Sequence record: OZ035797.1
Reading direction: 5' to 3' (one strand)
Source: Vectrevirus T147P1
Length of the DNA: 43,709 nucleotides
Below, piece after piece: positions 7,850 through 39,254 of this stretch (the first letter of the stretch is position 1; every line of letters starts with the position of its first letter). The notes beneath the pieces were generated by a model. The model saw only the letters and a list, made by a program, of their open reading frames with translations. It ran no database searches and was not told the DNA's origin. The position numbers and the translations under genes are program-made.

Positions 7850-8700
7850 GTTAATATCTTAGTGTACACAAGGGCAGACCTAGGTTTGCTCTTAGTGTAT
7901 TTACAATGGAGGTCTTATGTATATACCTATTGAAGCAATAGTAGGTTGCCTATGTTTGTTGATAGGTTTCGTTATAGGCGTAATAGCAAAGCCTTAGTAC
8001 TGTACAAGGATTAACCAAAGTCAAAATTTTGATATAGGCGTGTGTCAGCTCTCTCGCCCTCGCCCTCGCCGGGTTGTCCCCATATGGGGTCGGTCGGCGG
8101 TTGACCTAGGAATTTGGCGGGGCGGGTCCGTCTTCAACCTGCTGCCGCAGGAAGCTCGACGGGTGGGCGAGGGCTTGCCTTGTACTCGCTTAGTGGTACA
8201 CAAGGAGAACGCCTAGGAAGCGCTAGGGCACGCCTTAGTATTGGACAAGGTGATTGCCTTAGTTCAACCGCTTAGAGCTTACACGGGCCGTTTTAGGGCC
8301 ATTCCTGAGCGTTTGACAGGGTGTGAGGGCGTGGGCTATCTGTTCGTTTCGTTCACTCCGCTTGCGCTACGTTCACTCGCTCACGTGTACCTTAGGTTAT
8401 TCCTTGATGGATAGCTTAGGTTAGCCTTAGTGGATTACCTTAGTTAAAGCCTTAGTGCTTCACTTAGTATCAGCTTAGTAGTGTACCTTAGTAAGTATTA
8501 GTGTCTTCTCTTAGTGATTGCACATGCAAGCATGTAAGATGCCATTAGGTCGCGGTCGGTAGACCGCTAAAGAAGGAGAATAGTAATAAGATGCAGTAGG
8601 AGGAACACCCGAAACCTAGCCAACCTAGCCTATCCTAGCTCTGTATCTATTGCTTTTCCTTAGTCTAACATGTGAGACAACCTAGATTTATCTTAGTGAT
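7850..8700. repeat. genome terminus-like non-coding region with short repeats
   Basis: no long ORF; two copies of CTTAGTG(G)TACACAAGG near 7859 and 8189; GC-rich island with CTCGCC x3 (8053-8070) and CCCCATATGGGG (8078-8089); >10 copies of CCTTAGT/GCTTAG within 8230-8520; resembles the T7 left-end architecture. Confidence 0.5.
8664..8679. repeat. degenerate copy of the palindromic hairpin family
   Basis: GTCTAACATGTGAGAC, one substitution from the GTCTCACATGTGAGAC palindrome. Confidence 0.35.
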
Positions 8701-8712
8701 GATATCTTAGTG

Positions 8713-8741
8713 TTGACAAGGCCATCTCAATATAATACTAT
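8713..8741 (+). promoter_or_regulatory. host sigma70-like early promoter candidate
   Basis: TTGACA, 17-nt spacer, TACTAT; position corresponds to T7 early promoters near the left end. Confidence 0.45.
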
Positions 8742-8842
8742 TCATCACGTAGGCAGCACTGAGGTGCTTAGTAGCCAGCTAGTAAGGCATACGAAGAGAC
8801 TAGCGCTTACATTGCTCTTTAACAATTTGCTTAGTGTAACCT

Positions 8843-9064
8843 ATGTATGCCGTGGTTAATTACTTATTGAATGAGGGATTAACTATGACATTAAACAACC
8901 GTGAACTATCCGTTCTCTTCACTCTGTTGTGCTACATGATTCGTAACAACGAATTACTTACAGATGATGAGTTAGCCTTGTATCACCGCTTTCTTAACGA
9001 AGGTTGGACCGATACAGTTAATCAATACCGTAACATGATAGATGAGTTGAGGGAGGGTAAATAA
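8843..9064 (+). CDS. hypothetical early protein (start may be ATG 8885)
   Basis: 73-aa ORF; internal ATG at 8885 has a better SD (GAGGGA); first ORF after the early promoter. Confidence 0.5.
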   Translation: MYAVVNYLLNEGLTMTLNNRELSVLFTLLCYMIRNNELLTDDELALYHRFLNEGWTDTVNQYRNMIDELREGK

Positions 9065-9288
9065 TGTATCAACATGAGGTATTCTTTGAATCAGCTAGCG
9101 AAGCTATTCGCTTCCGTGATGATATGATGCAAGCTGGTGTAGGCGTTGATGTGTATCACTATTTGATAGATTACGACACTGAATATCACCGAGTTACCTT
9201 AGTATCTGAGTATGACAACCAAGTCATTACTGAGTACCTAGGCAGTGAAGATTACGATTACGATGAAGTAATCACGACAAATCTCTAA
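9064..9288 (+). CDS. hypothetical acidic early protein
   Basis: 74-aa ORF overlapping the previous stop (TAATG); acidic, Tyr/Asp-rich C-terminus. Confidence 0.5.
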   Translation: MYQHEVFFESASEAIRFRDDMMQAGVGVDVYHYLIDYDTEYHRVTLVSEYDNQVITEYLGSEDYDYDEVITTNL

Positions 9289-9296
9289 ATTAACTG

Positions 9297-9325
9297 TTGA
9301 CAGCCACGGCATACAAGGTTACATT
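9297..9325 (+). promoter_or_regulatory. host sigma70-like early promoter candidate
   Basis: TTGACA, 17-nt spacer, TACATT. Confidence 0.5.
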
Positions 9326-9406
9326 AAGCACATAGCCGATAGGCAACGCTCTTTAACAATACGGTTTGTGTCTTGATAGGCTAACTAACTAACTAAGGTA
9401 ATTATC

Positions 9407-9517
9407 ATGAAAGGTTTAATTTGTGTAGAACGTATGGTCAATGGTAAACTTGAAATATTACCACTGGAAAACCAATCTAGCTTCAAAGAGTGGTATGGCT
9501 GTTTCTCACTGATTTAA
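9407..9517 (+). CDS. hypothetical small early ORF (36 aa)
   Basis: ATG after CTAACTAACTAACTAAGG; follows the conserved GCTCTTTAACAAT leader element. Confidence 0.3.
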   Translation: MKGLICVERMVNGKLEILPLENQSSFKEWYGCFSLI

Positions 9518-9666
9518 GGTAAAGGCTGGCACTAGTCAGCCTATCAAGGCGCAAACCAAGCTCTTTAACAATTTGGATGGTAGCTTCTTAGTCTGGATAG
9601 GTTAAACCTAGGGTATTCTTTTGAGTACCCTATAATGTAACCTAACTAACTAATGAGGATTAAATC

Positions 9667-9999
9667 ATGGAACGCAATGCTAACGCTTACTACAACCTTC
9701 TGGCTGCAACTGTTGAAGCATTCAACGAGCGTATTCAGTTTGATGAGATTCGCGAAGGTGATGATTACTCTGATGCACTACATGAGGTTGTAGACAGCAA
9801 TGTTCCAGTTTATTACAGCGAAATCTTTACAGTGATGGCTGCTGATGGTATTGATGTTGATTTTGAGGATGCTGGTTTGATTCCTGACACGAAGGATGTA
9901 ACCAAGATTCTACAAGCTCGCATCTATGAAGCTCTTTATAATGATGTACCAAATGACAGCGATGTAGTTTGGTGTGAAGGCGAAGAAGAGGAAGAATAA
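9667..9999 (+). CDS. ocr: Ocr (gp0.3) DNA-mimic anti-restriction protein
   Basis: 110 aa, acidic; DEIREGDDYSDALHEVVDSNVPVYYSEIFTVMAADGIDVDFEDAGLIPDTKDVTKILQARIYE aligns closely to T7 Ocr as recalled; poly-Glu C-terminus. Confidence 0.9.
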   Translation: MERNANAYYNLLAATVEAFNERIQFDEIREGDDYSDALHEVVDSNVPVYYSEIFTVMAADGIDVDFEDAGLIPDTKDVTKILQARIYEALYNDVPNDSDVVWCEGEEEEE

Positions 10000-10001
10000 G
10001 G

Positions 10002-10115
10002 ATGGAAAAGCAATATAACTTTATCTTTTCAGACGGTGTAACCCTGAAGTGTTCCCTACGATTCGCACAAATTCGTGAGGAAGTACTAGGCACTACATAC
10101 AAACTATTTAGCTGA
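10002..10115 (+). CDS. small early protein, possibly gp0.4-like
   Basis: 37-aa ORF after AAGGA, directly downstream of ocr as T7 gene 0.4 is; weak similarity (SDxV...SL..AQ..E). Confidence 0.3.
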   Translation: MEKQYNFIFSDGVTLKCSLRFAQIREEVLGTTYKLFS

Positions 10116-10191
10116 CACTATAAGAGAAGGCTTAACAAGGCGTTACTAAGGTAGCGCCTGATTAAACTTTCACTTACTAGAGGTTAAGATT

Positions 10192-10317
10192 ATGAAACTA
10201 TCGCCATCCGCTAAAGGTCTTATTGCAGAACTTAAAGACTCTTTGAGGAATCCAATCATTTGGGCACTTATCTACATACCTTATGGTATCTACCTATTTC
10301 ACCTCATCACTGAGTAA
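10192..10317 (+). CDS. small membrane peptide (41 aa)
   Basis: ATG after AGAGG; hydrophobic C-terminal half IIWALIYIPYGIYLFHLI. Confidence 0.3.
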   Translation: MKLSPSAKGLIAELKDSLRNPIIWALIYIPYGIYLFHLITE

Positions 10318-10380
10318 ATAGCCTATAGCCTACCTGAGTGGGCTATGTGATATTTACTTACACTATATAAGGTGACTATT

Positions 10381-11304
10381 ATGACTACTGAAAACATCCT
10401 CCTGTCTGTCCGTGAAGCTGCAACTGCTGAGATTAAGCAGCATTTGGATAATATCGGCACTTCTTACATCAAAGTTGGCGCTTGTCTGAATGAATTACGC
10501 GGTGATTTCGAAGGTCAAAAAGACTTTTTAGCTTATGTAGAATCAGAGTTCGGCATCAAGAAAGCACAATGCTACAAGCTGATGAGTGTAGCCCGTGTCT
10601 TTGAAGGAGACGAACGCTTTAAAGGTGTGGCTATGCGTGTAATGCTGGCGCTTGTTCCTTTCGCTGATGAAAATATAATCATGGAGAAGGCCGCAGAACT
10701 CGCCGCAGAGGGCAAGCTGGACACTAACGCCGTAAACGCTCTGATTGATCCTAAGAAAGAGACAAAGGCTGAGACGGTACAATCTAAGGCTGAGACAGTA
10801 AAACCGCAGGAGAACGCGACTGAGGCCGCAGAAACTATGCAAGGACATGCAACCTTTGAGGATTTCATCTTAGAGAAGGCGAAAGAGGATTTACAAAGTG
10901 TGCCGCCAGTAAGTGAGTCGGGTAACGACGAATCCGCACCGTGGGAAGAGGAAAGCAAACCGGAAGAGCCAAAGGCAGCTCCGATGGATAACACGGCTAA
11001 TACTGAGAATGCCGCTATTGCTGGTCTGCTGGCACAAATTAAAGCACTGACTGAGCAATTACAGGCAGCCAATGACCGCATCGCCTCCTTAAGTAGCGCA
11101 CGCGAAAGCAAGAAGGCAGCCGCGCCTATGCTGCCGCAATTCAAATCTTCCTGCTTCTATGCTCGCTTAGGTTTAAGCGCTGAGGAGGCAACGAAGAAAA
11201 CAGCAGTTAACAAGGCACGCCGCGAACTGGTTAAGCTAGGCTACGGCGAAGGCCATGAAGCATGGCCCTTAATCTCTGAGGCAGTAGAAGAATTAACTAA
11301 GTAA
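10381..11304 (+). CDS. early protein of unknown function (non-kinase occupant of the T7 0.7 position)
   Basis: ATG at 10381 after AAGGTG; 307 aa; helical N-domain, acidic low-complexity linker with repeated KAETV, C-terminal FYARLGLSAEEATKK...ARREL segment; no protein-kinase motifs. Confidence 0.6.
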   Translation: MTTENILLSVREAATAEIKQHLDNIGTSYIKVGACLNELRGDFEGQKDFLAYVESEFGIKKAQCYKLMSVARVFEGDERFKGVAMRVMLALVPFADENIIMEKAAELAAEGKLDTNAVNALIDPKKETKAETVQSKAETVKPQENATEAAETMQGHATFEDFILEKAKEDLQSVPPVSESGNDESAPWEEESKPEEPKAAPMDNTANTENAAIAGLLAQIKALTEQLQAANDRIASLSSARESKKAAAPMLPQFKSSCFYARLGLSAEEATKKTAVNKARRELVKLGYGEGHEAWPLISEAVEELTK

Positions 11305-11367
11305 CCTTATCGGTGGCATCTTCTTAGGTGTCACCTATTAAGGTTTCTTTCACTAGGAGTAAACAAG

Positions 11368-13995
11368 ATGCAAGACCTACACGCTATTCAACTTCAACTT
11401 GAAGAAGAAATGTTTAACGGCGGTATCCGTCGCTTTGAAGCGGACCAACAACGCCAGATTGCATCCGGTAATGAATCAGACACGGCATGGAATCGCCGCT
11501 TATTGTCCGAGTTAATCGCGCCAATGGCTGAAGGTATTCAGGCTTATAAGGAAGAGTACGAAGGCAAGCGCGGTCGTGCACCACGTGCATTGGCTTTCAT
11601 TAACTGCGTAGAAAATGAAGTGGCAGCGTATATCACGATGAAGATCGTAATGGATATGCTTAACACTGATGTAACCTTGCAAGCTATCGCTATGAATGTA
11701 GCTGACCGCATCGAAGACCAAGTGCGCTTCAGTAAACTAGAAGGCCATGCAGCTAAATATTTTGAGAAGGTCAAGAAGTCACTTAAGGCAAGTAAGACTA
11801 AATCATATCGCCATGCGCACAACGTAGCGGTCGTGGCTGAGAAGTCAGTAGCTGACCGTGACGCTGATTTCTCTCGCTGGGAAGCGTGGCCTAAAGATAC
11901 CTTGCTACAAATTGGGATGACCTTGCTTGAAATCTTAGAGAATAGCGTATTCTTCAACGGGCAACCTGTCTTCCTCCGCACCTTGCGCACTAATGGCGGC
12001 AAACATGGTGTTTACTACCTACAGACTAGCGAACACGTGGGTGAATGGATAACTGCATTTAAAGAGCACGTAGCTCAGCTGAGTCCAGCCTATGCGCCTT
12101 GCGTGATTCCTCCTCGTCCGTGGGTGTCACCTTTTAATGGCGGTTTTCACACGGAGAAGGTGGCAAGCCGTATTCGTCTGGTTAAAGGTAACCGCGAGCA
12201 CGTCCGCAAGCTGACCAAAAAGCAAATGCCAGCGGTTTACAAGGCTGTTAACGCCTTACAAGCTACTAAGTGGCAGGTTAACAAGGAAGTATTGCAGGTA
12301 GTAGAAGATGTTATTCGTCTAGACCTCGGTTATGGTGTACCTTCCTTTAAGCCGCTCATTGACCGCGAGAACAAACCAGCTAACCCTGTTCCTCTTGAGT
12401 TCCAGCACCTGCGAGGCCGTGAACTTAAAGAGATGCTAACGCCGGAACAATGGCAAGCCTTTATAAACTGGAAAGGAGAATGTACCAAGCTGTATACCGC
12501 TGAAACTAAGCGCGGAAGCAAGTCGGCGGCGACCGTTCGCATGGTTGGACAAGCCCGTAAATACAGCCAGTTTGACGCAATTTATTTTGTGTATGCACTG
12601 GACAGCCGTTCACGCGTTTATGCGCAATCTAGCACGCTCTCGCCGCAATCAAACGACTTAGGCAAGGCATTGCTCCGTTTTACCGAAGGGCAGCGTCTTG
12701 ATAGCACTGAGGCGCTTAAGTGGTTTTTGGTGAACGGGGCGAATAACTGGGGTTGGGATAAGAAAACTTTTGACGTGCGCACCGCTAACGTGCTGGATAG
12801 CGAATTTCAAGACATGTGCCGCGACATTGCAGCCGACCCGCTGACCTTCACTCAATGGGTAAATGCTGATTCCCCTTATGGCTTCCTTGCATGGTGCTTT
12901 GAATATGCGCGTTATCTGGATGCACTGGACGAAGGAACGCAAGACCAATTCATGACGCACCTACCCGTCCATCAAGATGGTAGTTGCTCTGGTATCCAGC
13001 ACTATAGCGCGATGTTACGAGATGAAGTAGGTGCGAAAGCAGTAAACCTTAAGCCTTCTGACTCCCCTCAAGATATTTATGGCGCGGTTGCGCAGGTTGT
13101 TATCCAGAAGAATTACGCCTACATGAATGCAGACGACGCAGTGACTTTCACATCCGGAAGCGTCACACTTACAGGTGCAGAACTGCGTAGCATGGCTAGT
13201 GCGTGGGATATGATAGGAATCACTCGCGGATTGACCAAAAAGCCCGTAATGACACTACCTTATGGCAGCACACGTCTAACCTGCCGTGAATCAGTGATTG
13301 ATTATATCGTTGATTTAGAAGAAAAAGAGGCCCAACGGGCTATTGCGGAAGGGCGTACCGCCAATCCTGTACACCCTTTTGATAATGACCGTAAAGACAG
13401 CCTGACACCTAGCGCAGCTTATAACTATATGACAGCTTTAATCTGGCCTTCTATTTCGGAAGTGGTTAAAGCTCCTATAGTGGCAATGAAAATGATTCGT
13501 CAGCTTGCCCGTTTCGCAGCTAAAAGGAATGAAGGCTTAGAGTATACCCTGCCTACTGGCTTCATCTTGCAACAAAAGATTATGGCTACTGATATGCTCC
13601 GCGTATCTACTTGCTTGATGGGAGAAATCAAGATGAGTCTACAGATTGAAACGGACGTAGTAGATGAAACGGCAATGATGGGCGCTGCTGCTCCTAACTT
13701 TGTGCATGGTCATGATGCCAGTCACCTTATCTTAACGGTCTGCGACCTTGTTGATAAAGGGATTACATCTATCGCAGTAATTCATGATTCTTTTGGCACT
13801 CATGCAGGCCGTACAGCCGATCTACGCAACAGCTTAAGGGCAGAAATGGTGAAAATGTACCAAGGCCGTAATGCACTGCAAAGCCTGCTAGATGAGCACG
13901 AAGAACGCTGGTTAGTTGATACAGGAATCCAAGTACCAGAGCAAGGGGAGTTTGACCTTAACGAAATCTTAGTTTCAGACTATTGCTTCGCATAA
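11368..13995 (+). CDS. single-subunit DNA-directed RNA polymerase (T7 gene 1 / SP6 RNAP family)
   Basis: 875 aa; [25 protein letters not shown]-terminal SDYCFA; [18 protein letters not shown] matches the T7 RNAP segment AINIAQNTAWKINKKVL. Confidence 0.95.
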
Positions 13996-14002
13996 TATTA
14001 AT

Positions 14003-14034
14003 AGGCCATTCCTTCGGGAGTGGCCTTTCTTTTA
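14003..14034 (+). terminator. early intrinsic terminator after the RNAP gene (TE-like)
   Basis: GGCCATTCC-TTCG-GGAGTGGCC hairpin with UUCG loop followed by TTTCTTTT. Confidence 0.6.
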
Positions 14035-14068
14035 CCTACTACCTGTAACATTTCATTAACATAAACGT

Positions 14069-14084
14069 GTCTCACACGTGAGAC
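14069..14084. repeat. palindromic hairpin element (family copy A)
   Basis: GTCTCACACGTGAGAC, immediately upstream of the promoter at 14087. Confidence 0.6.
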
Positions 14085-14086
14085 TT

Positions 14087-14109
14087 ATTTACCGGACACT
14101 ATAGGATAA
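14087..14109 (+). promoter_or_regulatory. phage RNAP promoter (phi1.1A-like)
   Basis: ATTTACCGGACACTATAGGAT. Confidence 0.65.
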
Positions 14110-14248
14110 CCGTCGGAGACGGAAAGAGAAGGGAAGATAAGGATATAAAGGAAGTAATAGGTATTAAAGGTTATATAGGTTTACCTAGGAATACCTATTA
14201 CCTTCTTCCTTCCTCTTATTACTACTTAGAGAAGGTCAGACCTAAGTT
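14110..14248. other. candidate primary origin of replication (AT-rich inverted repeat between tandem phage promoters)
   Basis: AT-rich; inverted repeat GGAAGTAATAGGTATT ... AATACCTATTACCTTC flanking GGTTATATAGGTTTACCTAGG; position matches the T7 primary origin between phi1.1A and phi1.1B. Confidence 0.35.
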
Positions 14249-14264
14249 GTCTCACATGTGAGAC
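14249..14264. repeat. palindromic hairpin element (family copy B)
   Basis: GTCTCACATGTGAGAC perfect palindrome, immediately upstream of the promoter at 14270. Confidence 0.6.
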
Positions 14265-14269
14265 TTCGT

Positions 14270-14290
14270 ATTTACCGGACAGTATAGATA
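14270..14290 (+). promoter_or_regulatory. phage RNAP promoter variant (phi1.1B-like)
   Basis: ATTTACCGGACAGTATAGATA; C to G change in the conserved CACTATA core. Confidence 0.45.
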
Positions 14291-14317
14291 AGACTAACTT
14301 ACTTTGGAGATTTAACC

Positions 14318-14446
14318 ATGCGTAACTTTGAGAAGATGACCCGTAAAGCTAACCGTTTTGACATGGAAGAAGGGCAGACGAAAGGCAAGAAGCTGAATAA
14401 ACCTGTCCGTGACCGTGCATCTAAACGCGCAGCATGGGAGTTCTGA
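14318..14446 (+). CDS. gp1.1-like small basic protein
   Basis: 42 aa after GGAG; MRNFEKMTRKANR...KGKKLNK..RDRA.KR resembles T7 gp1.1 as recalled. Confidence 0.55.
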   Translation: MRNFEKMTRKANRFDMEEGQTKGKKLNKPVRDRASKRAAWEF

Positions 14447-14449
14447 GTT

Positions 14450-14668
14450 ATGGCTAAATACAGAATCAAGACCTGTTTAAATAGTCACGGGCAAGAGTTC
14501 TACGTAGTGCAACGTAAAGTATTAGGCTTAATATGGGTCACTTGTATGATGCCTATTGGCTATACTGATACAGAGGCTATCTTCTGCACCGAAAGGGATG
14601 CAAAGAAGTTTATCTCTAAGCGTAGAAAAGCTGACTCTTACCAACCTAGAATTATTAAGGTGAACTAA
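14450..14668 (+). CDS. hypothetical protein
   Basis: 72-aa ORF between the gp1.1-like gene and primase/helicase; 4-nt spacing upstream, overlapping stop/start downstream. Confidence 0.5.
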   Translation: MAKYRIKTCLNSHGQEFYVVQRKVLGLIWVTCMMPIGYTDTEAIFCTERDAKKFISKRRKADSYQPRIIKVN

Positions 14669-16656
14669 TGGCTATTATTAATAACATCCCGTGCCCTGCC
14701 TGTCAAAAGAATGGACATGATATTACTGGCAACCATCTTATGATATTTGAGGATGGCGCTGGTTACTGTAACCGTGGTCACTTCCATGATAATGGTAAGC
14801 CTTATTACCATAAGCCAGAGGGTGGTATCGAGATAACCGAATTGCCTATTACTGGCAATATCAAATATACACCTTCTCAATTCAAAGAAATGGAGAAGGA
14901 AGGGAAGATAAGCGACCCTAAGCTACGCGCCATCGCTCTTGGTGGTATGCGTATGAAAGACCGTTGGGAGGTCATGAATGAGCAAGAAAGGGCAGACCAA
15001 GAAGCAGAGTGGAAACTTGATGTTGAATGGTTCCTCACGCTTAAGCGTAAGAACCTTGTTTCCAGACACATTCGCGGCGACATTTGCGCATTGTATGATG
15101 TACGTGTCGGACACGATGAAGAGGGTAGAGTCTCGCGGCATTACTATCCACGCTTCGAGAAAGGTGAGCTAGTAGGAGCTAAGTGTCGCACATTACCTAA
15201 AGATTTTAAGTTTGGTCATTTAGGTAAACTCTTTGGTATGCAAGATCTTTTCGGTATGAATACTTTGTCTCACGTGTTAGACAAGGGGAGACGAAAGGAT
15301 TGCTTGCTTATTGTAGGCGGTGAACTTGATGCACTAGCAGCGCAGCAGATGCTCCTTGATTCTGCCAAGGGTACTAAGTGGGAGGGTCAGCCATACCATG
15401 TATGGTCTGTCAACAAAGGTGAGTCTTGCCTTGAAGAGATAGTGCAGAACCGTGAGCATATCGCCCAATTCAAGAAGATTATATGGGGTTTTGATGGAGA
15501 TGAGGTAGGGCAGAAGCAGAATCAGCAAGCGGCTCGCCTGTTTCCTGGCAAATCCTATATCCTTGAATACCCCTCTGGTTGCAAAGATGCTAACAAGGCA
15601 TTGATGGCTGGCAAGGCTAAAGAATTTGTAGATGCATGGTTTAATGCCAAGTCATCTGATGAAGTCTTTGGTAGCCAGATTAAATCTATCGCATCTCAAA
15701 GGGATAAGCTCAAGGCTGCACGTCCAGAGCAAGGACTATCATGGCCTTGGCCTAAGCTGAACAAGGTAACGCTAGGTATTCGTAAGAACCAGCTTATCAT
15801 TGTAGGTGCAGGGTCTGGTGTAGGTAAGACTGAGTTCCTTCGTGAAGTAGTTAAGCACCTCATTGAAGAACACGGTGAATCTGTAGGCATCATTTCTACA
15901 GAAGACCCGATGGTCAAGGTGTCCCGTGCTTTTATCGGCAAGTGGATTGATAAGCGTATTGAGTTACCGCCAACCAACGACCCGAAAGAAGACGGATACC
16001 GTGAGGTGTTCGACTACACCGAGGAAGAAGCTAACGCCGCCATTGATTATGTAGCTGATACAGGTAAGCTGTTTGTAGCTGACCTAGAGGGTGACTATTC
16101 GATGGAAAAGGTAGAGCAAACTTGCCTAGAGTTTGAGGCTATGGGCATTTCTAATATCATCATTGATAACTTAACGGGGATTAAATTAGATGAGCGTGCT
16201 TTTGGTGGGAAGGTTGGTGCACTTGATGAATGCGTCAAGCGGATTGGTACTATCAAAGACCGACACCCGGTTACTATATTCCTTGTATCACACCTTACAC
16301 GTCCTCCGGCAAACCGTACCCAACACGAAGAAGGTGGCGAGGTTATCCTTTCTGACTTCCGAGGCTCAGGCGCTATCGGATTCTGGGCATCTTACGCCTT
16401 GGGGATTGAGCGTAACACAAGAGCTGAAACGCTTGACGAAAGGACTACCACGTACATCTCATGTGTCAAAGACCGCGACCAAGGTATCTACACTGGAACC
16501 AAGGTCATGCTTAAGGGTGACATTCAAACCGGACGTTTAATGGAACCACAAGCCCGTACTAAGTCATTTGATACAGGTGAAGCAAGGCAACAAGAAGTAC
16601 CAGATTTACCGGACACTATAGAAGAGACTAACTTCGATGAAGAAAGTGAGTTCTGA
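14668..16656 (+). CDS. DNA primase/helicase (T7 gp4-like)
   Basis: 662 aa; N-terminal zinc ribbon CPACQ...CNRGH; Walker A GAGSGVGKTE; acidic C-terminus ending EESEF. Confidence 0.9.
   Translation: MAIINNIPCPACQKNGHDITGNHLMIFEDGAGYCNRGHFHDNGKPYYHKPEGGIEITELPITGNIKYTPSQFKEMEKEGKISDPKLRAIALGGMRMKDRWEVMNEQERADQEAEWKLDVEWFLTLKRKNLVSRHIRGDICALYDVRVGHDEEGRVSRHYYPRFEKGELVGAKCRTLPKDFKFGHLGKLFGMQDLFGMNTLSHVLDKGRRKDCLLIVGGELDALAAQQMLLDSAKGTKWEGQPYHVWSVNKGESCLEEIVQNREHIAQFKKIIWGFDGDEVGQKQNQQAARLFPGKSYILEYPSGCKDANKALMAGKAKEFVDAWFNAKSSDEVFGSQIKSIASQRDKLKAARPEQGLSWPWPKLNKVTLGIRKNQLIIVGAGSGVGKTEFLREVVKHLIEEHGESVGIISTEDPMVKVSRAFIGKWIDKRIELPPTNDPKEDGYREVFDYTEEEANAAIDYVADTGKLFVADLEGDYSMEKVEQTCLEFEAMGISNIIIDNLTGIKLDERAFGGKVGALDECVKRIGTIKDRHPVTIFLVSHLTRPPANRTQHEEGGEVILSDFRGSGAIGFWASYALGIERNTRAETLDERTTTYISCVKDRDQGIYTGTKVMLKGDIQTGRLMEPQARTKSFDTGEARQQEVPDLPDTIEETNFDEESEF
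16604..16626 (+). promoter_or_regulatory. phage RNAP promoter inside the 3' end of the helicase gene
   Basis: ATTTACCGGACACTATAGAAGAG. Confidence 0.6.
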
Positions 16657-16673
16657 TTAGTGTATTTATCAGG

Positions 16674-16697
16674 GCTTGTCTCACATGTGAGACAGGC
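16674..16697. repeat. palindromic hairpin element (family copy C)
   Basis: GCTTGTCTCACATGTGAGACAGGC; 18-bp perfect palindrome core plus flanking pairs, followed by TCTTATT. Confidence 0.6.
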
Positions 16698-16732
16698 TCT
16701 TATTAAGTACATTAAATAACTGGAGATTAACT

Positions 16733-17416: not shown

Positions 17417-17426
17417 GGAGCTAATC

Positions 17427-17648: not shown

Positions 17649-17820
17649 ACATAGTCTTAAAATGTTCGATGGTCATGAAGACCTGCAAGCCAAGATTACT
17701 AACCAAGCCTTCCTGTTTGCACAGTTAACCATGGCTGAAGCAAAGAAGAATAGCCTGACGCGTGAACAGGTTATCAAGGAAAGTGAAGTGAAACGTAAGA
17801 TTCGCAGTCGATAAGTCAAG

Positions 17821-17844
17821 GGTTGTCTCACACGTGAGACAGCC
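17821..17844. repeat. palindromic hairpin element (family copy D)
   Basis: GGTTGTCTCACACGTGAGACAGCC followed by TTTCAT. Confidence 0.6.
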
Positions 17845-17965
17845 TTTCATCATATTGATTGGAGGTGCATTATGCCACGTGATTATGATTCTGATTGGGA
17901 CTATTATGACTCAATGAATCCAAAACCCGAACGTTCAGATGATTACTACGAAACAGAGGCAATGT

Positions 17966-21586: not shown

Positions 21587-22393
21587 ATGGCACGTGGTGA
21601 TTTTGATTTTGGTGCTCAGGTTACTAAAGCTGAAGGTAAGGTTTTTAAGAACCCTGAAGTTGGTGATCATGAAGCAGTAATCTCTGGCATCATTCATGTG
21701 GGTTCCTTCCAAGATATCTTTAAGAAAGGTAATACCACTGAAGTTAAGAAGCCAGCAAACTTTGTTCTTGTTAAGATTGTACTGATGGGTGACGATGACA
21801 AGAACGAAGATGATTCTCGCATGGAACAATGGATGGCTGTTCCTCTGAAGTCTGGTGATAAGGCAACACTGACTAAGTTCCTGAATGCAGTTGACCCCAA
21901 AGAATTGCTTGGTGGCTTCGATGATTTTATCGGGGAATGCCTGACTGCAACTATGGTTGGCTCTGGTGACAAGAATGACGATGGTTCATTCAAGTATGTT
22001 AACTGGAAAGGATTCGGTGGTATGCCTGACAAGCTTAAGAAACTTGTCATTGCTCAGGTTGAAGAAGAGGGTCTGTCTATGACAGGTCACATCACCTTCG
22101 ACAAGCTGACCAAAGAAATCCTTGATGACATTCCTGCTAACTTGGTACGCCAATACTTCCTTAATGAAACACCTCGTGGTAAGAACCTGTCTGTTGCTGG
22201 TTCTCACGTAGAAGCAATCATTAAAGCTGCTCGTGAAGAAGACCCAGAGTGGAAGAAAGCCAAGAAGAAAGATGACGAGGATGCTACTCCAGCTAATCGT
22301 AAATCTCTGGATACTGGTGAGTCTGTTCCACAGGAAGTACCTGAAGCAGAAGATACTCCTGCACCGGAGATGGATGAGGACGCGGAATATTAA
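21587..22393 (+). CDS. hypothetical protein with acidic C-terminal tail (possible ssDNA-binding or replisome accessory protein)
   Basis: 268 aa after TAGGAGACTAAATAA; C-terminus ends EMDEDAEY; size compatible with a gp2.5-type SSB but no direct similarity recognised. Confidence 0.5.
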   Translation: MARGDFDFGAQVTKAEGKVFKNPEVGDHEAVISGIIHVGSFQDIFKKGNTTEVKKPANFVLVKIVLMGDDDKNEDDSRMEQWMAVPLKSGDKATLTKFLNAVDPKELLGGFDDFIGECLTATMVGSGDKNDDGSFKYVNWKGFGGMPDKLKKLVIAQVEEEGLSMTGHITFDKLTKEILDDIPANLVRQYFLNETPRGKNLSVAGSHVEAIIKAAREEDPEWKKAKKKDDEDATPANRKSLDTGESVPQEVPEAEDTPAPEMDEDAEY

Positions 22394-22402: not shown

Positions 22403-22621
22403 ATGAAAGTACAAATCGTAACCCTGCACTGCAAGAAAGGTATCACAACGCTCGGAGGTGGCACTTTCCACTCTTTCTCCGAAGGGGAGATTTATGCTGA
22501 CCTGCACTACATCTGGCGCGACGGACAGCACGTGGTGAACTACAGCGACCCAGCTACGGGGAAACGCCACGGCGTATCGCTTCCGGCGCATGACATTGCT
22601 CAGGTGAACACAGTTTTATAA
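22403..22621 (+). CDS. hypothetical protein
   Basis: 72-aa ORF after AAGGAGAAAGG. Confidence 0.5.
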   Translation: MKVQIVTLHCKKGITTLGGGTFHSFSEGEIYADLHYIWRDGQHVVNYSDPATGKRHGVSLPAHDIAQVNTVL

Positions 22622-22622: not shown

Positions 22623-22638
22623 GTCTCACGTGTGAGAC
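22623..22638. repeat. palindromic hairpin element (family copy E, reverse-orientation centre)
   Basis: GTCTCACGTGTGAGAC, upstream of the promoter at 22654. Confidence 0.6.
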
Positions 22639-22726: not shown

Positions 22727-23098
22727 ATGTTCAAGATTGAAACTATCGTAAACCGTGTTGTTAAAGGTGCTGCTCTGGTATCCGTTGAGTCTTTCATTAT
22801 CGTCGATGAAGCTGATCAACTGGTAGCTGGTACTAAGGCTTACGATACCCGTGAAGAAGCTCAGGCTAAGATTGACAGCATGGGTAACTTCGCTGCTGGT
22901 CTGGAGTTCGCTCGTGCTTGCTTCCCTGAGCAGGCTGACAAAGCTCAGATTGGTAAGGCTAATATCGTAGCTGAATATCTGGATTGGGTTGCTGCTGGTA
23001 AACCAGTGAAAGAAGTTAAGGCTGCTGAAGAAGCTGAAGCTCCAGCAGAAGAAGTAGCTGCACCGGAAACTCCGGTAAGCGAAGAGGAAGAATTTTGA
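22727..23098 (+). CDS. small acidic protein with C-terminal EEEEF tail; function unknown
   Basis: 123 aa; strong SD AAAAGGAGAA; own promoter upstream and terminator-like hairpin downstream. Confidence 0.6.
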   Translation: MFKIETIVNRVVKGAALVSVESFIIVDEADQLVAGTKAYDTREEAQAKIDSMGNFAAGLEFARACFPEQADKAQIGKANIVAEYLDWVAAGKPVKEVKAAEEAEAPAEEVAAPETPVSEEEEF

Positions 23099-26627: not shown

Positions 26628-27571
26628 ATATCTTCCAATTCCTAGGCCTTCCAGAAGGCCACCGCAACCACCCATTCATGCTGGTGAAGCATCGCGGTGA
26701 AGTACCTGAGAAGAAACTAACATTTCCATGTTATGCACAGGTGAAACGAGATGGTATCTTTTCTGCTGTTGTTGTTCGCACTGATGGTGTCGTTGGCATT
26801 TTTGGTCGCACTGGTAAGAAACTGGCAAACACTGAAGGCCTCGAACAAACATTTGCTACCTTTCCGGTTGGCATTTATCTTGGTGAGCTTCAGTCTATGG
26901 CCATTGATATCTACCTTGAGGCAATCTCTGGGGTTGTGAACCCTAATCGCACTGAGCCACTTGATTTCATAGGCCAGCAGATTAAAGACAACCTGTATAT
27001 CGACTTCTTCGATATGTTAACTATTAAGGCATTCCATGATGGATTCACTGATGTTTCTTATCTCAAACGTTACGATGCTTTACATCGCCGCATCGGCGCT
27101 CATCTTAGCGGGTACAACGCTATCCTTCCTATTACTCCTTGCCATAATGAGCGAGAAGTTGAAGCGTTTGCGCAAGAGCAGATAGACGCAGGCCGAGAAG
27201 GTGCTGTGTTTAAACTGGACTGTGATTATGAAGCAGGACATAAAGGTTATCGTCAGACTAAAGAAGTCCGTAAGGTAACTTATGACCTTACTTGTATTGG
27301 CTTTGAAGAAGGTAAAGGCAAATACAAAGGTAAGGTAGCTAACCTCATTTTCAAATGGAAAGGAGGCAAGACAATCAAAGCTATGTTAGGTAAGGGGTGG
27401 ACTCATGCAGATGCAGAACAGATGTTCCACGACATTAAACATGGTGGACGATTGAATGTCATTGGTAAAATCTTTGAAGTCAAAGGTCTTCAGGATTCAA
27501 GCAAGGGCAACATTCGTCTGCCCAAAGCGGGAGAATTAAGACATGACAAAGATGAACCAGATTTCTTTTGA
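26624..27571 (+). CDS. ATP-dependent DNA ligase (T7 gp1.3-like)
   Basis: 315 aa; adenylation motif KRDG in YAQVKRDGIF; size and fold pattern of small phage ligases. Confidence 0.7.
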   Translation: MNIFQFLGLPEGHRNHPFMLVKHRGEVPEKKLTFPCYAQVKRDGIFSAVVVRTDGVVGIFGRTGKKLANTEGLEQTFATFPVGIYLGELQSMAIDIYLEAISGVVNPNRTEPLDFIGQQIKDNLYIDFFDMLTIKAFHDGFTDVSYLKRYDALHRRIGAHLSGYNAILPITPCHNEREVEAFAQEQIDAGREGAVFKLDCDYEAGHKGYRQTKEVRKVTYDLTCIGFEEGKGKYKGKVANLIFKWKGGKTIKAMLGKGWTHADAEQMFHDIKHGGRLNVIGKIFEVKGLQDSSKGNIRLPKAGELRHDKDEPDFF

Positions 27572-28568: not shown

Positions 28569-28569
28569 T

Positions 28570-31040: not shown

Positions 31041-31046
31041 TTCAGT

Positions 31047-31069
31047 ATTTACTGGACACTATAGAAGGG
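31047..31069 (+). promoter_or_regulatory. phage RNAP promoter upstream of the capsid gene (phi10-like)
   Basis: ATTTACTGGACACTATAGAAGGG exact consensus; downstream strong SD TAAGGAGA. Confidence 0.8.
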
Positions 31070-31119
31070 AGAAAAGTTCTCCCTAGTTATCAATTTGATT
31101 TATAAGGAGATTATAATAC

Positions 31120-32328: not shown

Positions 32329-32335
32329 TACCTAT

Positions 32336-32370
32336 GCCCTATCTACCTTGCGTAGGTAGGGTTATTTTTG
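32336..32370 (+). terminator. phage late terminator after the capsid gene (Tphi-like)
   Basis: CCCTATCTAC-CTTGC-GTAGGTAGGG hairpin followed by TTATTTTTG. Confidence 0.7.
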
Positions 32371-32382
32371 TTAGGAGGATTC

Positions 32383-35522: not shown

Positions 35523-36268
35523 TGGCTATAGGTTCAGCCGTTATGGCTGGTATGTCTTCTATTGGTAGTATGTTTGCAGGTAGCGGTGCAGCCGCCGCTG
35601 CTGGTGGTACTGCCGCAGCAGCAGGAGGGACAGCCGCCGCAGGTGGCGGAGGTTTGCTTGGCTCCCTTGGTAGTTTCTTAGGAGGTACTTCTGCTGGCTT
35701 CTCTAATGCAGGACTGCTTAGTGCAGGTATGCAAGGTCTTGGTCTTCTAGGCAATCTTTTTGGTGGAAGTGATGAAGCCAAAGCTATGAAGAAAGCTCAG
35801 GAGGAGCAATGGCGGCAGCAGTTAATTGCTACACAAGAAGCATATAAGACAGTGGCAGATGCAGAACGCTCTGCTGCTAAACAGTATCATGCGGATGCAA
35901 TAAGCAATCAGGCTTCACTGCTACAGCAAAGAGCGCAGGTTGCACTACTTGCAGGTGCAACTGGCACTGGTGGTAACTCTGTATCTTCTATGCTGAATGA
36001 CTTAGCAGCAGAGGGCGGGAGGAACCAGAGTACAATTATTGATAACTATGAGAATCAGAAGATTAACTTCACCAATCAGCTTAAGTCTATCCAGCGAGGT
36101 GGACAGATGCAGATGCGTGAGTTTAAGAAGCCTTCTGCCGTGAGCACCTTGGTGCAAGGTATACCGAGTCTGGCATCTGCCTATGTAACAGGTAGTAAGT
36201 CCGGCATGGCTTTAGGTAAAGCTTTAACTGATTCTCGTACATATTCATCTGGAACAAGAGGTATTTAA
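35522..36268 (+). CDS. internal virion protein (gp14-like)
   Basis: ATG at 35522 after AAGGAGGG; Gly/Ala-rich hydrophobic N-terminus; position before the large internal virion proteins. Confidence 0.55.
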   Translation: MAIGSAVMAGMSSIGSMFAGSGAAAAAGGTAAAAGGTAAAGGGGLLGSLGSFLGGTSAGFSNAGLLSAGMQGLGLLGNLFGGSDEAKAMKKAQEEQWRQQLIATQEAYKTVADAERSAAKQYHADAISNQASLLQQRAQVALLAGATGTGGNSVSSMLNDLAAEGGRNQSTIIDNYENQKINFTNQLKSIQRGGQMQMREFKKPSAVSTLVQGIPSLASAYVTGSKSGMALGKALTDSRTYSSGTRGI

Positions 36269-39216
36269 TGGCAATTGAGCGACAAGCAGTACAAGGTCTG
36301 CCACAAGTGCAGGCCACTTCTCCTAATGTCATGACCTTTGCACCTCAGCGAGTTGGAGGTGTGGAGGCTGGCGTAGCTTCTACCTCCGGTAGTCGATTTA
36401 TCGAAGACCTTATTCGAGCAGCCAGTAGTGTAGCTGATGTAACCACTGGTATCCTTAATCAAAAGATTGAGGAAGATAAGGTTGTTCAAATGGAACGGGC
36501 ATATAACGGATTAATGCCTTCTGAGGATGCAACTCGTGGTGGCGCTCGTGCTAACATGCTTGTCAAAGCTCAACTGCTAGCTAATGATGAAGCAGCACGA
36601 ATGAAAGACATGGCTACTCGTTTCCAAGGAACGGATGACGAGTGGACACAACTTATGGTTGACTCTCGTAATGAGATGCAGAATAAGCTGTTCCAGCAAT
36701 ACCCTGAGTTGCAAGGTGACAAAGATACTATGCGTATGGTCACTAATGTCTTCCAAGAACAGCAGCCTCAGATTTGGGCTACACGAACCCAGCATAAACT
36801 TGACCGTGAACAAGCAGACCGTGAGGATACCTTTGACGGGCGAGTGGCTTCTACTTGGGATTCTAATATTGACCCTGAAGCCTCTGGCTATGCTTTACAG
36901 GAACGGATCCGCGAAGGTCTTACTCAAGGATTACTACCTGAACAGATGCACAAGAAGTTAGTCCAGCGAGCAATTTCACTTGCACAAGGCGGTGATGTTA
37001 GCATGGCTGAAGCCCTGAAGTATGTGAAGGACGATAAGGGTGTTTCTGTTTATGCTAAGAATCCACAGCTTATCACAGCCATCACTAGTGGTAATGCAGT
37101 TTGGGCTAGGAATAATATAGCTGATGTAACTCGTATGTCTTTCGAAGTTAAAGAATCCTACCTTGCAGGTGATTTAACTGATGAAGAATTGTTGGAACGA
37201 GCACAGCACATTAATAATCTGACAGGTAACTCTGTCTTCTCTAATCCAGAGCTAGAGGCACTGATGCGCCAACGGGCTAAGCAGAATGCAGAGCTAGGTG
37301 CAATGCAGGATATGCGACGTGAGCTTTACTCCGACCGCCTGACTGGCTTCCAAGGTAAGACTGATAAAGAGAAGAAGGCTTACATTGATGTTATCAAACA
37401 GGATAGCCAACTTTATGCAGACCAGCAAATCAAACAACGTGGCTTGGACCCTTACAGTCAAGAGGCTGAAGCTATTCGTGGTGCAGTGGAAGTGCAGCGC
37501 CTGCAATTCATGAACTCCAAAGGCTTAGTGGATGATACCTTTGAGTCTCGTATCAAAGCCATGGAGTCTATGCTATCGCCTGAGCACTTTGCCAAGGGCG
37601 AACCACAGGAGTTGATGACTATTCGCCAGTTGTGGGAACAGTTGCCAGAAGAGAGCCGAGGTGTCTTTGGTGACACGGTGAATGGCTACATGGATAACTA
37701 CAACACTGCACTACAAATGGGAGAGACACCTTTGCAGGCTGCAAGGTTTGCGCGTGAAGCACAGCAGAAATTCTCTCGTACTGAGAAGGAAACCAAGAAG
37801 TTCAACTCAGCTATTGGAGATGCACTGGATGAGGTATCTGGTGCTGGCTGGTTTGATGGTAAAACCGAAGTGTCAGACTTAGGTAAAGCTATTGCGGAAG
37901 AAGAGTTACGAGCTAAGGCCAATATGTTGTGGTCTAGTGGTATGCGTAACATGGATTCTATCAAGAAGGCTTTAATTACTTGGGGCAATAAACGCTACAC
38001 TCAAACAGAGGATGCAAAGACTTCCGGTGGCTATTTCATTAAAGGTGATTACACTTCTGCATCTGATATGCTTATGTCAGTTGGGAAAGGCGTAAACCCT
38101 ACCGATGTACCTCTGGCGCTTGGTAGGTATGTAGAAATACAGATGCCAGAATTGAAGAAGGAGCTTCAAGAGTGGGAAACTAAAGATGATATATACATTG
38201 ATTACAATGAACAGAAAGGAACTTTTGTGATTCGTGCTGGTGCAGCAGGTCGCCCTCTTTCTGGAGTAATCCCTGTAACCTCTTTAGATACTACTTCACT
38301 ACTAGATTCTGCCTATCAGAAGAAAGTAGAGGAACGAGATAAAGGCGAGTATGTCCACCCGTATCGTACAGATATTGGTGCACAAGAGCCTATGCCAGCT
38401 AAACCAACTGCCAAAGATATTGGTAAATTTGGACTAGCTAACTTCCTCATGTCTTCTGCTTTTGCTTCTGGTGAGAATCTGCCTTCTAACTTCGAGATTA
38501 ACTATCGAGGTAATATGCAACAATTCTATGACAAGCTAGCTATGGATGAGAATAAAGATAAAGTTGGCTTTAATAAGGCAACTGGAACCTTTACTCCATA
38601 TAAAGACGCTCACGGTGAGTCTATCGGTTACGGTCATTTCTTAACGGAAGAAGAGAAGCGAAACGGGTATATTAAGATTGGCGATGAACTAGTTCCCTAT
38701 CGAGGGTCTATGTCTCAGCTTACAGAGAGCAAGGCTCGTGCTCTTATGGAGCAAGATGCTAAGAAGCATGTGCCTCCTACTCGCGACTGGAAGATTCCGT
38801 TTGACCAGATGCACCCTGCACAGCAACGTGGCTTGATGGATTTAAGCTACAATTTAGGTAAAGGTGGAATCCAGGACTCACCGCGTGCTCTTGCTGCATT
38901 CAAAGCTGGTAAGCTTACGGAAGGCTTTATCGAAATGCTGGGCACTGCATCAAGTGAAGGTAAGCGTATCCCTGGCCTACTGAAGCGACGCGCTGAGGCA
39001 TACAATATGGCATCTGCTGGTGGTGTGCCTAAGATTACCGAAGTGGAGACTCGTGAAGATGGCTCCATGTGGGTTAGGTTTGGTGGACCTATGCCAGCAG
39101 GTTCTGTCTCGGCATGGACTCATAAACGTATTGGCGCGGATGGTTGGTATCAGGTTTATGAGGCTGCACCTACCAAGTTAGCTAAAGGTTCTAAGGTAGG
39201 TAAAGTTAAGTTGTAG
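36268..39216 (+). CDS. internal virion protein (gp15-like) with C-terminal lysozyme-like domain
   Basis: 982 aa; C-terminal YKDAHGESIGYGHFLTEEE...QQRGLMDLSYNLG resembles the T4-lysozyme-type motif YKDxEGxxTIGIGH. Confidence 0.75.
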   Translation: MAIERQAVQGLPQVQATSPNVMTFAPQRVGGVEAGVASTSGSRFIEDLIRAASSVADVTTGILNQKIEEDKVVQMERAYNGLMPSEDATRGGARANMLVKAQLLANDEAARMKDMATRFQGTDDEWTQLMVDSRNEMQNKLFQQYPELQGDKDTMRMVTNVFQEQQPQIWATRTQHKLDREQADREDTFDGRVASTWDSNIDPEASGYALQERIREGLTQGLLPEQMHKKLVQRAISLAQGGDVSMAEALKYVKDDKGVSVYAKNPQLITAITSGNAVWARNNIADVTRMSFEVKESYLAGDLTDEELLERAQHINNLTGNSVFSNPELEALMRQRAKQNAELGAMQDMRRELYSDRLTGFQGKTDKEKKAYIDVIKQDSQLYADQQIKQRGLDPYSQEAEAIRGAVEVQRLQFMNSKGLVDDTFESRIKAMESMLSPEHFAKGEPQELMTIRQLWEQLPEESRGVFGDTVNGYMDNYNTALQMGETPLQAARFAREAQQKFSRTEKETKKFNSAIGDALDEVSGAGWFDGKTEVSDLGKAIAEEELRAKANMLWSSGMRNMDSIKKALITWGNKRYTQTEDAKTSGGYFIKGDYTSASDMLMSVGKGVNPTDVPLALGRYVEIQMPELKKELQEWETKDDIYIDYNEQKGTFVIRAGAAGRPLSGVIPVTSLDTTSLLDSAYQKKVEERDKGEYVHPYRTDIGAQEPMPAKPTAKDIGKFGLANFLMSSAFASGENLPSNFEINYRGNMQQFYDKLAMDENKDKVGFNKATGTFTPYKDAHGESIGYGHFLTEEEKRNGYIKIGDELVPYRGSMSQLTESKARALMEQDAKKHVPPTRDWKIPFDQMHPAQQRGLMDLSYNLGKGGIQDSPRALAAFKAGKLTEGFIEMLGTASSEGKRIPGLLKRRAEAYNMASAGGVPKITEVETREDGSMWVRFGGPMPAGSVSAWTHKRIGADGWYQVYEAAPTKLAKGSKVGKVKL

Positions 39217-39228
39217 TACCTAACTCAA

Positions 39229-39254
39229 GGCTTGTCTCACATGTGAGACAGGTC
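39229..39254. repeat. palindromic hairpin element (family copy F)
   Basis: GGCTTGTCTCACATGTGAGACAGGTC between gp15-like and gp16-like genes, followed by TTTATG. Confidence 0.6.

Follow-up and report, generated by a model that had tools for sequence, protein, structure and literature searches.

Dispersed palindromes in a K1E-like phage genome and the early protein gp6 as their candidate reader

The genome of Vectrevirus T147P1 (sequence record OZ035797.1; 43,709 nucleotides, called here the window) contains a family of short palindromes, GTCTCAC-NN-GTGAGAC, most of them lying between genes. What are these elements? Do they work as DNA or as RNA, and which protein would read them? The palindrome family is real and is conserved over a large branch of T7-like lytic phages. 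We propose that the palindromes are double-stranded DNA operators, which a dimer of the phage protein gp6 would read as a dispersed regulator network. Binding by gp6 is suggested by its fold, its co-occurrence with the sites and its covariation with them. We consider this explanation about evenly balanced between right and wrong.

The palindrome family and its conservation

The window is the genome of a K1E/K1-5-like phage (Vectrevirus, Molineuxvirinae, Autographiviridae) in circularly rotated form, and shares 92-96% identity with many Escherichia phages across 13 kb. Alignment with the ends of K1E and K1-5 puts the left physical end at ~8052; the direct terminal repeat extends to ~8338. The plus strand carries all the window genes.

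The 16-mer GTCTCACNNGTGAGAC (GTCTCAC-NN-GTGAGAC) has six exact matches in the window, at 14069, 14249, 16678, 17825, 22623 and 39234. No exact match appeared in 100 dinucleotide-preserving shuffles of the window, so the copy number exceeds chance, a point on which the initial annotation had made the family depend. Allowing up to three mismatches gives nine matches versus 1.5 expected. Two of these have a single mismatch, at 8663 (GTCTAACATGTGAGAC) and 15267 (GTCTCACGTGTTAGAC). The match at 26805, with three mismatches, is probably chance. The centres of the exact copies are AT (three), AC (two) and GT (one), exactly as first counted. Seven of the eight copies are inside the non-coding portion of the window, which is only ~7% of its length; the eighth, at 15267, is inside the primase/helicase gene (14668-16656). 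The initial annotation had listed seven copies and called all of them intergenic. This is correct for those seven, although the in-gene copy was missed, and four of the start positions were right while those of 8663, 16678 and 39234 were each off by one. The full site spans 18 bp, W-GTCTCAC-RY-GTGAGAC-W, and the duplex form of the window-type site is TGTCTCACATGTGAGACA.

K1E and K1-5 keep the same sites as the window. SP6 has no GTCTCAC copy and presents instead nine copies of GTC[C/T]AAC-NN-GTTGGAC at syntenic places. A search of SP6-like relatives for the 16-mer, as suggested earlier, recovers the sites in K1E and K1-5 and a changed core in SP6. The SP6-type core (GTCCAAC/GTCTAAC) is also found at syntenic places in UAB_Phi78 and Klebsiella phage PYH-2. 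Proteus phage Premi shows a GTCCAAC core with a 3-nt centre, and Erwinia phage phiEa1H the GTCTCAC core. Pseudomonas phage Njord (Colwellvirinae), with an RNA polymerase 42% identical to that of the window, carries eleven GTCTCAC-ANT-GTGAGAC copies.

We compared 79 IMG/VR loci around RNA polymerase homologs. Nearly all the lineages with an RNA polymerase identity of at least 40% (50+ genomes or contigs) carry a repeated 16-17 bp GT...AC palindrome, with copies in syntenic positions. The core differs by lineage: GTCTCAC, GTCCAAC, GTTTCAC-N3, GTTCCAC, GTCTACA-N2, GTCTAGT-N2 and others. In the group of IMG/VR loci with ~30% identity (T7-like phages and others), no palindrome recurs more than two times. 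Edwardsiella phage DT115 and Erwinia phage VL73 initially looked negative. DT115 has a diverged version, GT[A/C]TAGT-RY-ACTA[T/G]AC, and VL73 shares with contig L186 a non-palindromic version, GTCYACTGTARGAGAC, present in both orientations. The copies directly after the RNA polymerase gene (one or two, by two promoters and a gene 1.1 homolog) are the most conserved feature and occur in all lineages. Each genome has one core, changed as a set between lineages, and so the copies appear to be co-evolving with a trans-acting reader.

Could the copies lack a trans-acting reader and be REP/MITE-like repeats, either selfish or driven by recombination and kept alike through gene conversion? Within one genome the copies agree at all 16 positions, and phiEa1H shows a duplication through the element. 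However, the positions are syntenic across genera, from Vectrevirus to the Njord-like phages. The core has been held over very long evolutionary times, and the in-gene copies adapt codons. The element measures 16-18 bp and lacks flanking target duplications, and no transposase is found among the conserved gene families. Neither did the close relatives compared show any presence/absence polymorphism of copies with new insertion sites. We regard this account as very improbable.

Some lineages display further arrangements of the sites. The 16-mers are consistently asymmetric or non-palindromic in VL73 (L129), L186 and L178 (GTCYACTGTARGAGAC and GTCTACTATAATAGAC), and they occur in both orientations, with a ratio of 5:4 in L178. 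In the DT115-like lineage (L128, L159, L161 and L177), a second palindrome, GTACTAG-N4-CTAGTAC, lies ~10 nt after several operators; this could be another type of site or a hairpin. In phiEa1H (L126), positions 7036-7086 contain an operator, a truncated promoter (ATTAACCACCCAG...) and a second operator. This looks like a duplication or recombination through the operator.

Duplex DNA or RNA hairpin

The initial annotation drew a parallel with the RNase III processing sites of T7 and also considered a site for a dimeric DNA- or RNA-binding protein. The constraints on the core bear on this choice. In the 129 distinct copies with an N2 centre, the centre is purine-pyrimidine without exception (AT 38, AC 36, GT 47, GC 8). 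This means that each half-site is GTCTCAC-R. It also bears out, for the relatives as for the AC and GT centres of the window, the early remark that both orientations occur. The flanking bases at -1 and +1 of the same 129 copies are almost always A or T. These constraints on centre and flanks are two-fold symmetric; they fit a duplex bound by a dimer and would be meaningless in a hairpin loop. In addition, the imperfect copies among 258 distinct ones comprise 16 with G·U, 16 with A·C and 48 with other mismatches, so there is no plus-strand wobble preference. The SP6 copies had suggested such a wobble signature, with U·G in 7/7 transcribed imperfect copies. It was dropped given the 16 versus 16 over the 258 distinct copies. 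In the VL73 and L186 versions, hairpin formation is impossible.

The copies located inside genes follow the core of their genome. The window copy at 15267..15282 encodes S-H-V-L-D. Likewise, the primase copies of other GTCTCAC phages encode S-H-V-L-D with a CAC codon for His, and those of GTCCAAC phages S-N-V-L-D with an AAC codon for Asn. The single mismatch of the window copy avoids a TGA stop, which a perfect GTCTCAC would create in that frame. Some phages have in-gene copies in the RNA polymerase gene, with the same frame and the same His/Asn rule. In-gene copies of this frame occur in L127 (4964) and L126 (5768).

As far as sequence comparison allows, we favour the reading of the core as a double-stranded DNA site with two-fold symmetry. 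For the dimeric protein site proposed at first, the DNA form is preferred over the RNA form given the symmetric constraints, the freedom of orientation, the concerted change and the existence of a candidate reader, which would be the bound protein.

Three sites present an RNA layer as well. The copies at 16678, 17825 and 39234 form 13-bp RNA stems with U-rich tails (-18 to -20 kcal/mol; z -3.5 to -6.1), as the long stems and U-rich tails noticed at the outset had indicated. All three are on the plus strand. The first hairpin (16671..16700; -20.3 kcal/mol; apex palindrome 16678-16693) is followed by CUUAUUAAG; it comes behind the primase/helicase gene, at a distance of 50 nt from the start site of the upstream promoter at 16604. 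The second (17818..17847; -17.9 kcal/mol; apex palindrome 17825-17840) is upstream of a small gene that precedes the DNA polymerase gene. The third (39227..39256; -18 kcal/mol; apex palindrome 39234-39249) is between the internal virion protein genes gp35 and gp36. The other five copies have a 6-bp stem only and fold no better than shuffles.

The number of extra flanking pairs is bimodal: 205 copies have 0-2 and 54 copies have 4-8. Long runs depend on G·U being accepted in the plus strand; the minus-strand reading gives no copy with at least five extra pairs. We aligned 21 distinct sequences from the three syntenic sites, which follow primase/helicase, precede the DNA polymerase operon and follow gp35, respectively. 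In this alignment 98.9% of the cells are paired and 6 of the 13 pairs changed on both sides, and no shuffle or slid register came close. The pairing and the two-sided changes therefore indicate real plus-strand RNA hairpins with the operator at the apex. The depositors of Premi annotated the syntenic hairpin sites as terminators, among them the site syntenic to 39227-39256. No Rfam family was matched at the gathering threshold. If gp6 reads the operators, their placement inside hairpins would suggest a coupling of DNA-bound protein and RNA-hairpin termination.

The near-consensus promoter at 16604-16624 is contained in the 3' end of primase/helicase. Transcripts started there would reach the hairpin at 16671-16700 ~50 nt past their start, in an attenuator-like arrangement.

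These hairpins raise the question of whether the whole family acts as RNA, that is, as processing sites for RNase III or another nuclease, as 3'-end stabilisers or as terminators, like the T7 R sites. The three strong plus-strand hairpins, with G·U pairs that work on the plus strand only, agree with it. So do the terminator annotations of Premi and the intergenic placement, which parallels that of T7. The T7 sites (R0.3 to R18.5) are likewise about ten intergenic elements on one strand of a T7-supergroup genome. However, they are long irregular hairpins in which structure is conserved, whereas the window family conserves sequence. In the window, the longest stems have 13 bp, in three copies, and not the ~20 bp or more of extended double-stranded RNA, usually interrupted by an internal loop, typical of T7-type RNase III sites. 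Five of the eight copies do not fold beyond shuffles. A pattern of kept structure and drifting sequence was not found either, with covariation only in the flanking stems of three sites. On the contrary, sequence is kept where structure would suffice, even at 42% RNA polymerase identity.

The comparison with terminators leads to a similar view. Intrinsic and T7 RNA polymerase class I terminators resemble the three copies in being stable stem-loops followed by U-rich sequence. Nevertheless, the U-tracts here are short and interrupted, five copies lack the stem extension and the apex is conserved beyond what a terminator needs. A stable G+C hairpin with an immediate U-run is seen in part at three copies and not at five. 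Moreover, a true intrinsic terminator stands immediately before the palindrome in the window and in several phages; the order terminator, palindrome, promoter is found in the window, phiEa1H, Njord, PYH-2, DT115 and L214. Together with the symmetric centre and flanks, the mismatched copies free of wobble bias, the VL73 and L186 versions that cannot pair and the lack of an Rfam match, these points make an RNA function of the whole family clearly improbable. As for the RNase III parallel, it stands in position (RNA polymerase gene, promoter, promoter and gene 1.1 homolog, as in T7) and fails in structure at the five copies with only a 6-bp stem. RNase III processing is not supported for the family as a whole.

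gp6 as the candidate reader

If the sites are read as DNA, a reader should be found among the phage proteins. The candidate is gp6 (10381..11304, plus strand), a 307-aa early protein encoded directly upstream of the RNA polymerase gene. It is located in the early region, downstream of the sigma-70-like promoters and before the early terminator, and its family is common to all nine full genomes compared; the SP6 member is gp7. It has no PHROGs function, no Pfam match for the full protein and no match when its sequence is compared with PDB chains. A helix-turn-helix-like stretch, FGIKKAQCYKLMSVARVF, is present in its N-terminus. Eleven of 20 diverse gp6 N-terminal domains match Pfam DUF3102, weakly (best E-value 1.7e-6).

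An AlphaFold2 model built with 44 sequences gives a confident six-helix N-domain, with a predicted local distance difference test score (pLDDT) of 87-95. Then come an acidic linker without order, a coiled coil at 205-244 and a C-terminal domain, again confident. More precisely, the predicted order is a DUF3102/KorB-ParB-type helix-turn-helix (1-125), the linker, the coiled coil and a J-domain-like C-terminus. This J-like domain lacks the HPD motif, and its conserved loop is GYGxxH. The likenesses of the model listed with figures are Spo0J (5.7), the ParB DNA-binding domain (5.5) and SopB-DNA (5.1). A Foldseek search against PDB was not significant, with VirB and KorB among the top matches. The viral structural neighbours in BFVD are DUF3102 proteins, and a profile of the N-domain against PDB sequences gave spurious matches only. 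With the model as a basis, we propose that the N-domain has a KorB/ParB/SopB-type helix-turn-helix fold.

The distribution of gp6 agrees with that of the sites. A hidden Markov model of its N-domain finds it wherever a palindrome-bearing locus reaches far enough upstream of the polymerase gene, and in none of the palindrome-free T7-like loci compared. The gp6-type family comprises 113 clusters (50% identity) at E <= 1e-30 and 896 clusters at E <= 1e-3.

The residues of the second helix of the helix-turn-helix change with the motif. We compared the GTCTCAC lineages Vectrevirus, the phiEa1H group, L167, the Njord-like phages and the HJG-like phages. Q63, Y65 and K66 are invariant in all of them, although overall gp6 identity is ~35-45% and the neighbouring residues vary freely. 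Every other motif class shows a change at residue 63, 65 or 66. It consists of N66 with GTCCAAC, H66 in SP6 (mixed GTCTAAC/GTCCAAC), R66 with GT[T/C]CCAC (L210) and S65 with GTTTCAC. Likewise, Y63/R66 goes with GTCTACA, W63/R66 with GTCTAGT and W63/F65 with the VL73 type. The gp6 columns that are most specific for motif class lie together at 63-66 and at 85-86, the latter where the next-but-one helix begins. After this rule was stated, we picked homologs by helix sequence and looked up their contigs. Those of P0220 and P0219 (Q-Y-K) contain GTCTCAC copies. The contig of P0192 (Aeromonas phage HJG, Q-Y-K) contains GTCTCAC-N3 copies, and that of P0196 (R66) a new motif variant.

We also weighed the case of a protein-read DNA site whose reader is another clade-specific phage protein or a host factor. 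Several other proteins, among them gp16, gp18 and endonuclease VII, occur throughout the clade; in addition, phylogeny confounds the covariation, and the single-column test is a weak one. Against this, gp6, according to its model, has a sequence-specific DNA-binding fold, and it is alone in this among the conserved proteins found here. In the lookups that followed the statement of the rule, the helix residues of gp6 went with the motif. A host factor cannot account for the different motifs seen in phages of the same or closely related hosts. We find a reader other than gp6 distinctly unlikely. The specific assignment of gp6 as reader is held with moderate confidence.

Other candidates were tried and set aside. 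The protein gp17 (22403-22621) seemed limited to motif-bearing genomes; its sequence has no DNA-binding signature. The correlation failed because DT115 and VL73 carry motif variants. T7 primase reads GTC and SP6 primase reads GCA. Primase recognition sites were rejected, as the motif contains no GCA and its conservation over the whole length argues otherwise. The boxes of host factors (SlmA, MatP, CRP and MetJ) have unlike sequences, and the cores are lineage-specific in phages of related hosts. Searches of gp10, gp16 and gp18 against PDB chain sequences gave nothing. Pfam and PHROGs searches with 20 proteins gave only ocr, gene 1.1, a metallophosphoesterase and phrogs of unknown function. A comparison by spacer length (L144 with L145; Njord with L167 and L185) pinpointed no diverged protein, these lineages being too distant. 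A strict count of the columns that discriminate class A from class B was insufficiently specific as a pointer to gp6. The searchable literature, which did not reach the original SP6 and K1-5 genome papers, yielded nothing on the 16-mer, on a function of DUF3102 or on ParB-like regulators in Autographiviridae.

Placement, proposed action and comparison with known systems

The sites are placed at the borders of transcription units. The left-end copy (8663..8678; one mismatch) precedes the first sigma-70-like early promoter by 34 bp, counted to its -35 hexamer, and is ~610 bp away from the physical left end. This promoter (8713..8741, plus strand; TTGACA, 17 nt spacer, TACTAT) comes from a consensus scan only. 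The copy is syntenic in K1E (632), K1-5 (559), SP6 (493) and UAB_Phi78 (521). Immediately 3' of the RNA polymerase gene there is an intrinsic terminator, a hairpin with a T-run (14003..14026, plus strand). The copy at 14069..14084, with an AC centre, stands between this terminator and phage promoter P1 (14087..14107, plus strand; ATTTACCGGACACTATAGGAT). The copy at 14249..14264, with an AT centre, precedes promoter P2 (14270..14290, plus strand; ATTTACCGGACAGTATAGATA). P2 is upstream of the gene at 14318-14446, a homolog of T7 gene 1.1 (Pfam PF08200). The copy at 22623..22638, with a GT centre, starts 2 nt past the gp17 stop codon and precedes a consensus phage promoter (22654..22674, plus strand) upstream of gp18. 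The order gp17 stop, operator, promoter and gp18 is also present in SP6, UAB_Phi78, Premi, Njord and DT115. The three copies end 2, 5 and 15 nt ahead of their promoters, in agreement with the three promoter-adjacent copies reported initially. In a count over six genomes, a promoter core stands at most 45 nt downstream of 13 of the 49 copies, versus a background of 1-6%, and the tandem of operator then promoter is kept in all lineages.

The spacer after the polymerase gene has other features. The first ~215 nt of the P1 transcripts (14104-14317) are non-coding. They contain a conserved 5' hairpin, CCGTC-GGA-GACGG, at 14110-14122, for which Klebsiella phage PYH-2 has the compensatory version CCTTC-GGA-GAAGG.

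This layout after the RNA polymerase gene, with two promoters and gene 1.1, was confirmed in T7 itself. In T7, the spacer between the RNA polymerase gene and gene 1.1 holds the primary origin and the RNase III site R1.1. The sites might then be read, by gp6 or another phage protein, for DNA replication, as origin or replisome-loading marks, with the J-like domain of gp6 recruiting or remodelling host or phage replication proteins. The most conserved copies do follow the RNA polymerase gene directly, beside the promoter pair and the gene 1.1 homolog, most copies are in the DNA-metabolism region and one is inside the primase gene. However, copies also occur between virion genes (39234), after the capsid and terminase genes of Njord and at the genome end. 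The missing HPD motif of the J-like domain also speaks against this role. We know of nothing in T7-group biology that requires an origin-binding protein. On balance, a replication role seems unlikely.

For the operator network read by gp6, we suggest the following action. The protein and the phage RNA polymerase would both be made early, from transcripts of the host polymerase. The gp6 protein would dimerise, probably through the coiled coil, and occupy about eight operators. These would mark the boundaries of transcription units, with one upstream of the early sigma-70 promoters and one inside the primase gene. Two would flank promoter P1 in the spacer between the RNA polymerase gene and gene 1.1, one would lie directly upstream of the gp18 promoter, and three would be at the apex of terminator- or attenuator-like RNA hairpins. 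Bound gp6 may modulate initiation at the adjacent phage promoters and, elsewhere, the passage or termination of polymerase. It would then act globally on the early-to-middle region in the manner of KorB, and its own early promoters would probably be among its targets. Alternatively, gp6 and its sites might serve to control the origin-equivalent spacer that separates the polymerase gene from the gene 1.1 homolog.

Several observations weigh against this proposal. The window has 13 promoter-like sites, and 10 of them have no operator, so that no simple activator or repressor geometry is evident. The spacing from operator to promoter is variable (2, 5 and 15 bp). The always-asymmetric sites of L178, VL73 and L186 have no obvious explanation with a homodimer. 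The clear selection of three sites as plus-strand RNA hairpins is not predicted by a pure DNA-operator model. In addition, many other clade-specific genes have the same distribution as gp6, and motif class and gp6 lineage are phylogenetically confounded. In the discriminating-column test taken alone, gp6 has one column against a background of ~0.2-0.4% of columns, which is not significant.

The closest working analogy for a global regulator at transcription-unit boundaries is KorB with its OB operators in the IncP plasmid RK2. RK2 has a dozen or so dispersed copies of the palindrome, some promoter-proximal and others remote. Likewise, the window has one palindrome dispersed over the replicon in eight copies, three of them 2-15 bp upstream of promoters. 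Nevertheless, gp6 has no ParB-type N-terminal domain (no Pfam match), and no IncC/ParA or KorA partner is evident. Unlike KorB, it has a coiled coil and a J-like domain in the model. The phage is also a lytic replicon transcribed mainly by a single-subunit RNA polymerase, and the operator sequence differs from that of RK2.

The sites also recall parS. Chromosomal parS is TGTTTCACGTGAAACA, with half-sites TGTTTCAC and GTGAAACA. Both parS and the phage sites are two-fold symmetric over 16 bp. The parS half-sites are identical to GTTTCAC (L160) and GTTCCAC (L210), and the window half-site TGTCTCAC is one base off. The specificity residues of ParB and Noc are in the recognition helix and in helix alpha-6, the next-but-one helix, the same two places where the class-specific columns of gp6 cluster (63-66 and 85-86). 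On the other hand, the phage sites have 2-3 extra central bp and are spread at gene boundaries, not grouped in a centromere cluster. The ParB N-terminal (CTPase/Srx-like) domain is absent from gp6, and no ParA-like gene was found in the window open reading frame set or in the K1E and SP6 annotations. A virulent phage has no partition function to serve. The extra central bp, the lack of the ParB N-terminal domain and the lack of ParA argue that this is not a partition system, and that a ParB/KorB-type DNA-binding domain would have been reused. For the wider T7-supergroup branch (SP6/K1E-like Molineuxvirinae, Njord-like Colwellvirinae and uncultured relatives), we give an even chance to the view that gp6 reads co-evolving parS-like operators.

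Scattered operators are known from other phages. The stoperators of mycobacteriophage L5 and the C1 operators of P1 are scattered sites, mostly in short intergenic gaps, that act on transcription passing or starting nearby. They resemble the sites described here in being many copies of one protein-binding site. They differ in being asymmetric, orientation-dependent in the case of the stoperators, and devoted to lysogenic repression. The sites of this family are symmetric and orientation-free, belong to virulent phages and would have an unrelated reader.

Some neighbouring genes of the window deserve mention. The proteins gp16 (21587-22393) and gp18 (22727-23098), both "hypothetical" in public records, have the C-termini ...EMDEDAEY and ...SEEEEF. 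These acidic tails with a terminal aromatic residue resemble those of T7 gp2.5 and gp4. The protein gp16 is probably a single-stranded DNA-binding protein. At the right end of the genome there are two tailspike-sized open reading frames, 3996-5888 (630 aa) and 5974-7686 (570 aa). For the first, tblastn gives no match in K1E, in SP6 or in any other relative compared, and the second has just 34% identity to K1E. The pair is probably a swapped host-range module.

To our knowledge, no phage-encoded site-specific DNA-binding regulator forms part of the T7 paradigm. The timing of T7 depends on genome entry, two polymerases, promoter strength and lysozyme. SP6-like phages are the source of SP6 polymerase and are widely used in therapy targeted at K1/K5 capsules. 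If gp6 reads the palindromes, these phages would have an extra layer of control at the early/middle boundary and in the region equivalent to the T7 origin. DUF3102 would gain a function, and a ParB/KorB-type DNA-binding domain would have been reused without the partition machinery. About a dozen natural switches of residue and base would then form a recognition-code series, in which the evolution of specificity could be followed directly, as for ParB and Noc. The 18-bp sites and the gp6 variants could also be orthogonal regulator parts for T7-type expression systems.

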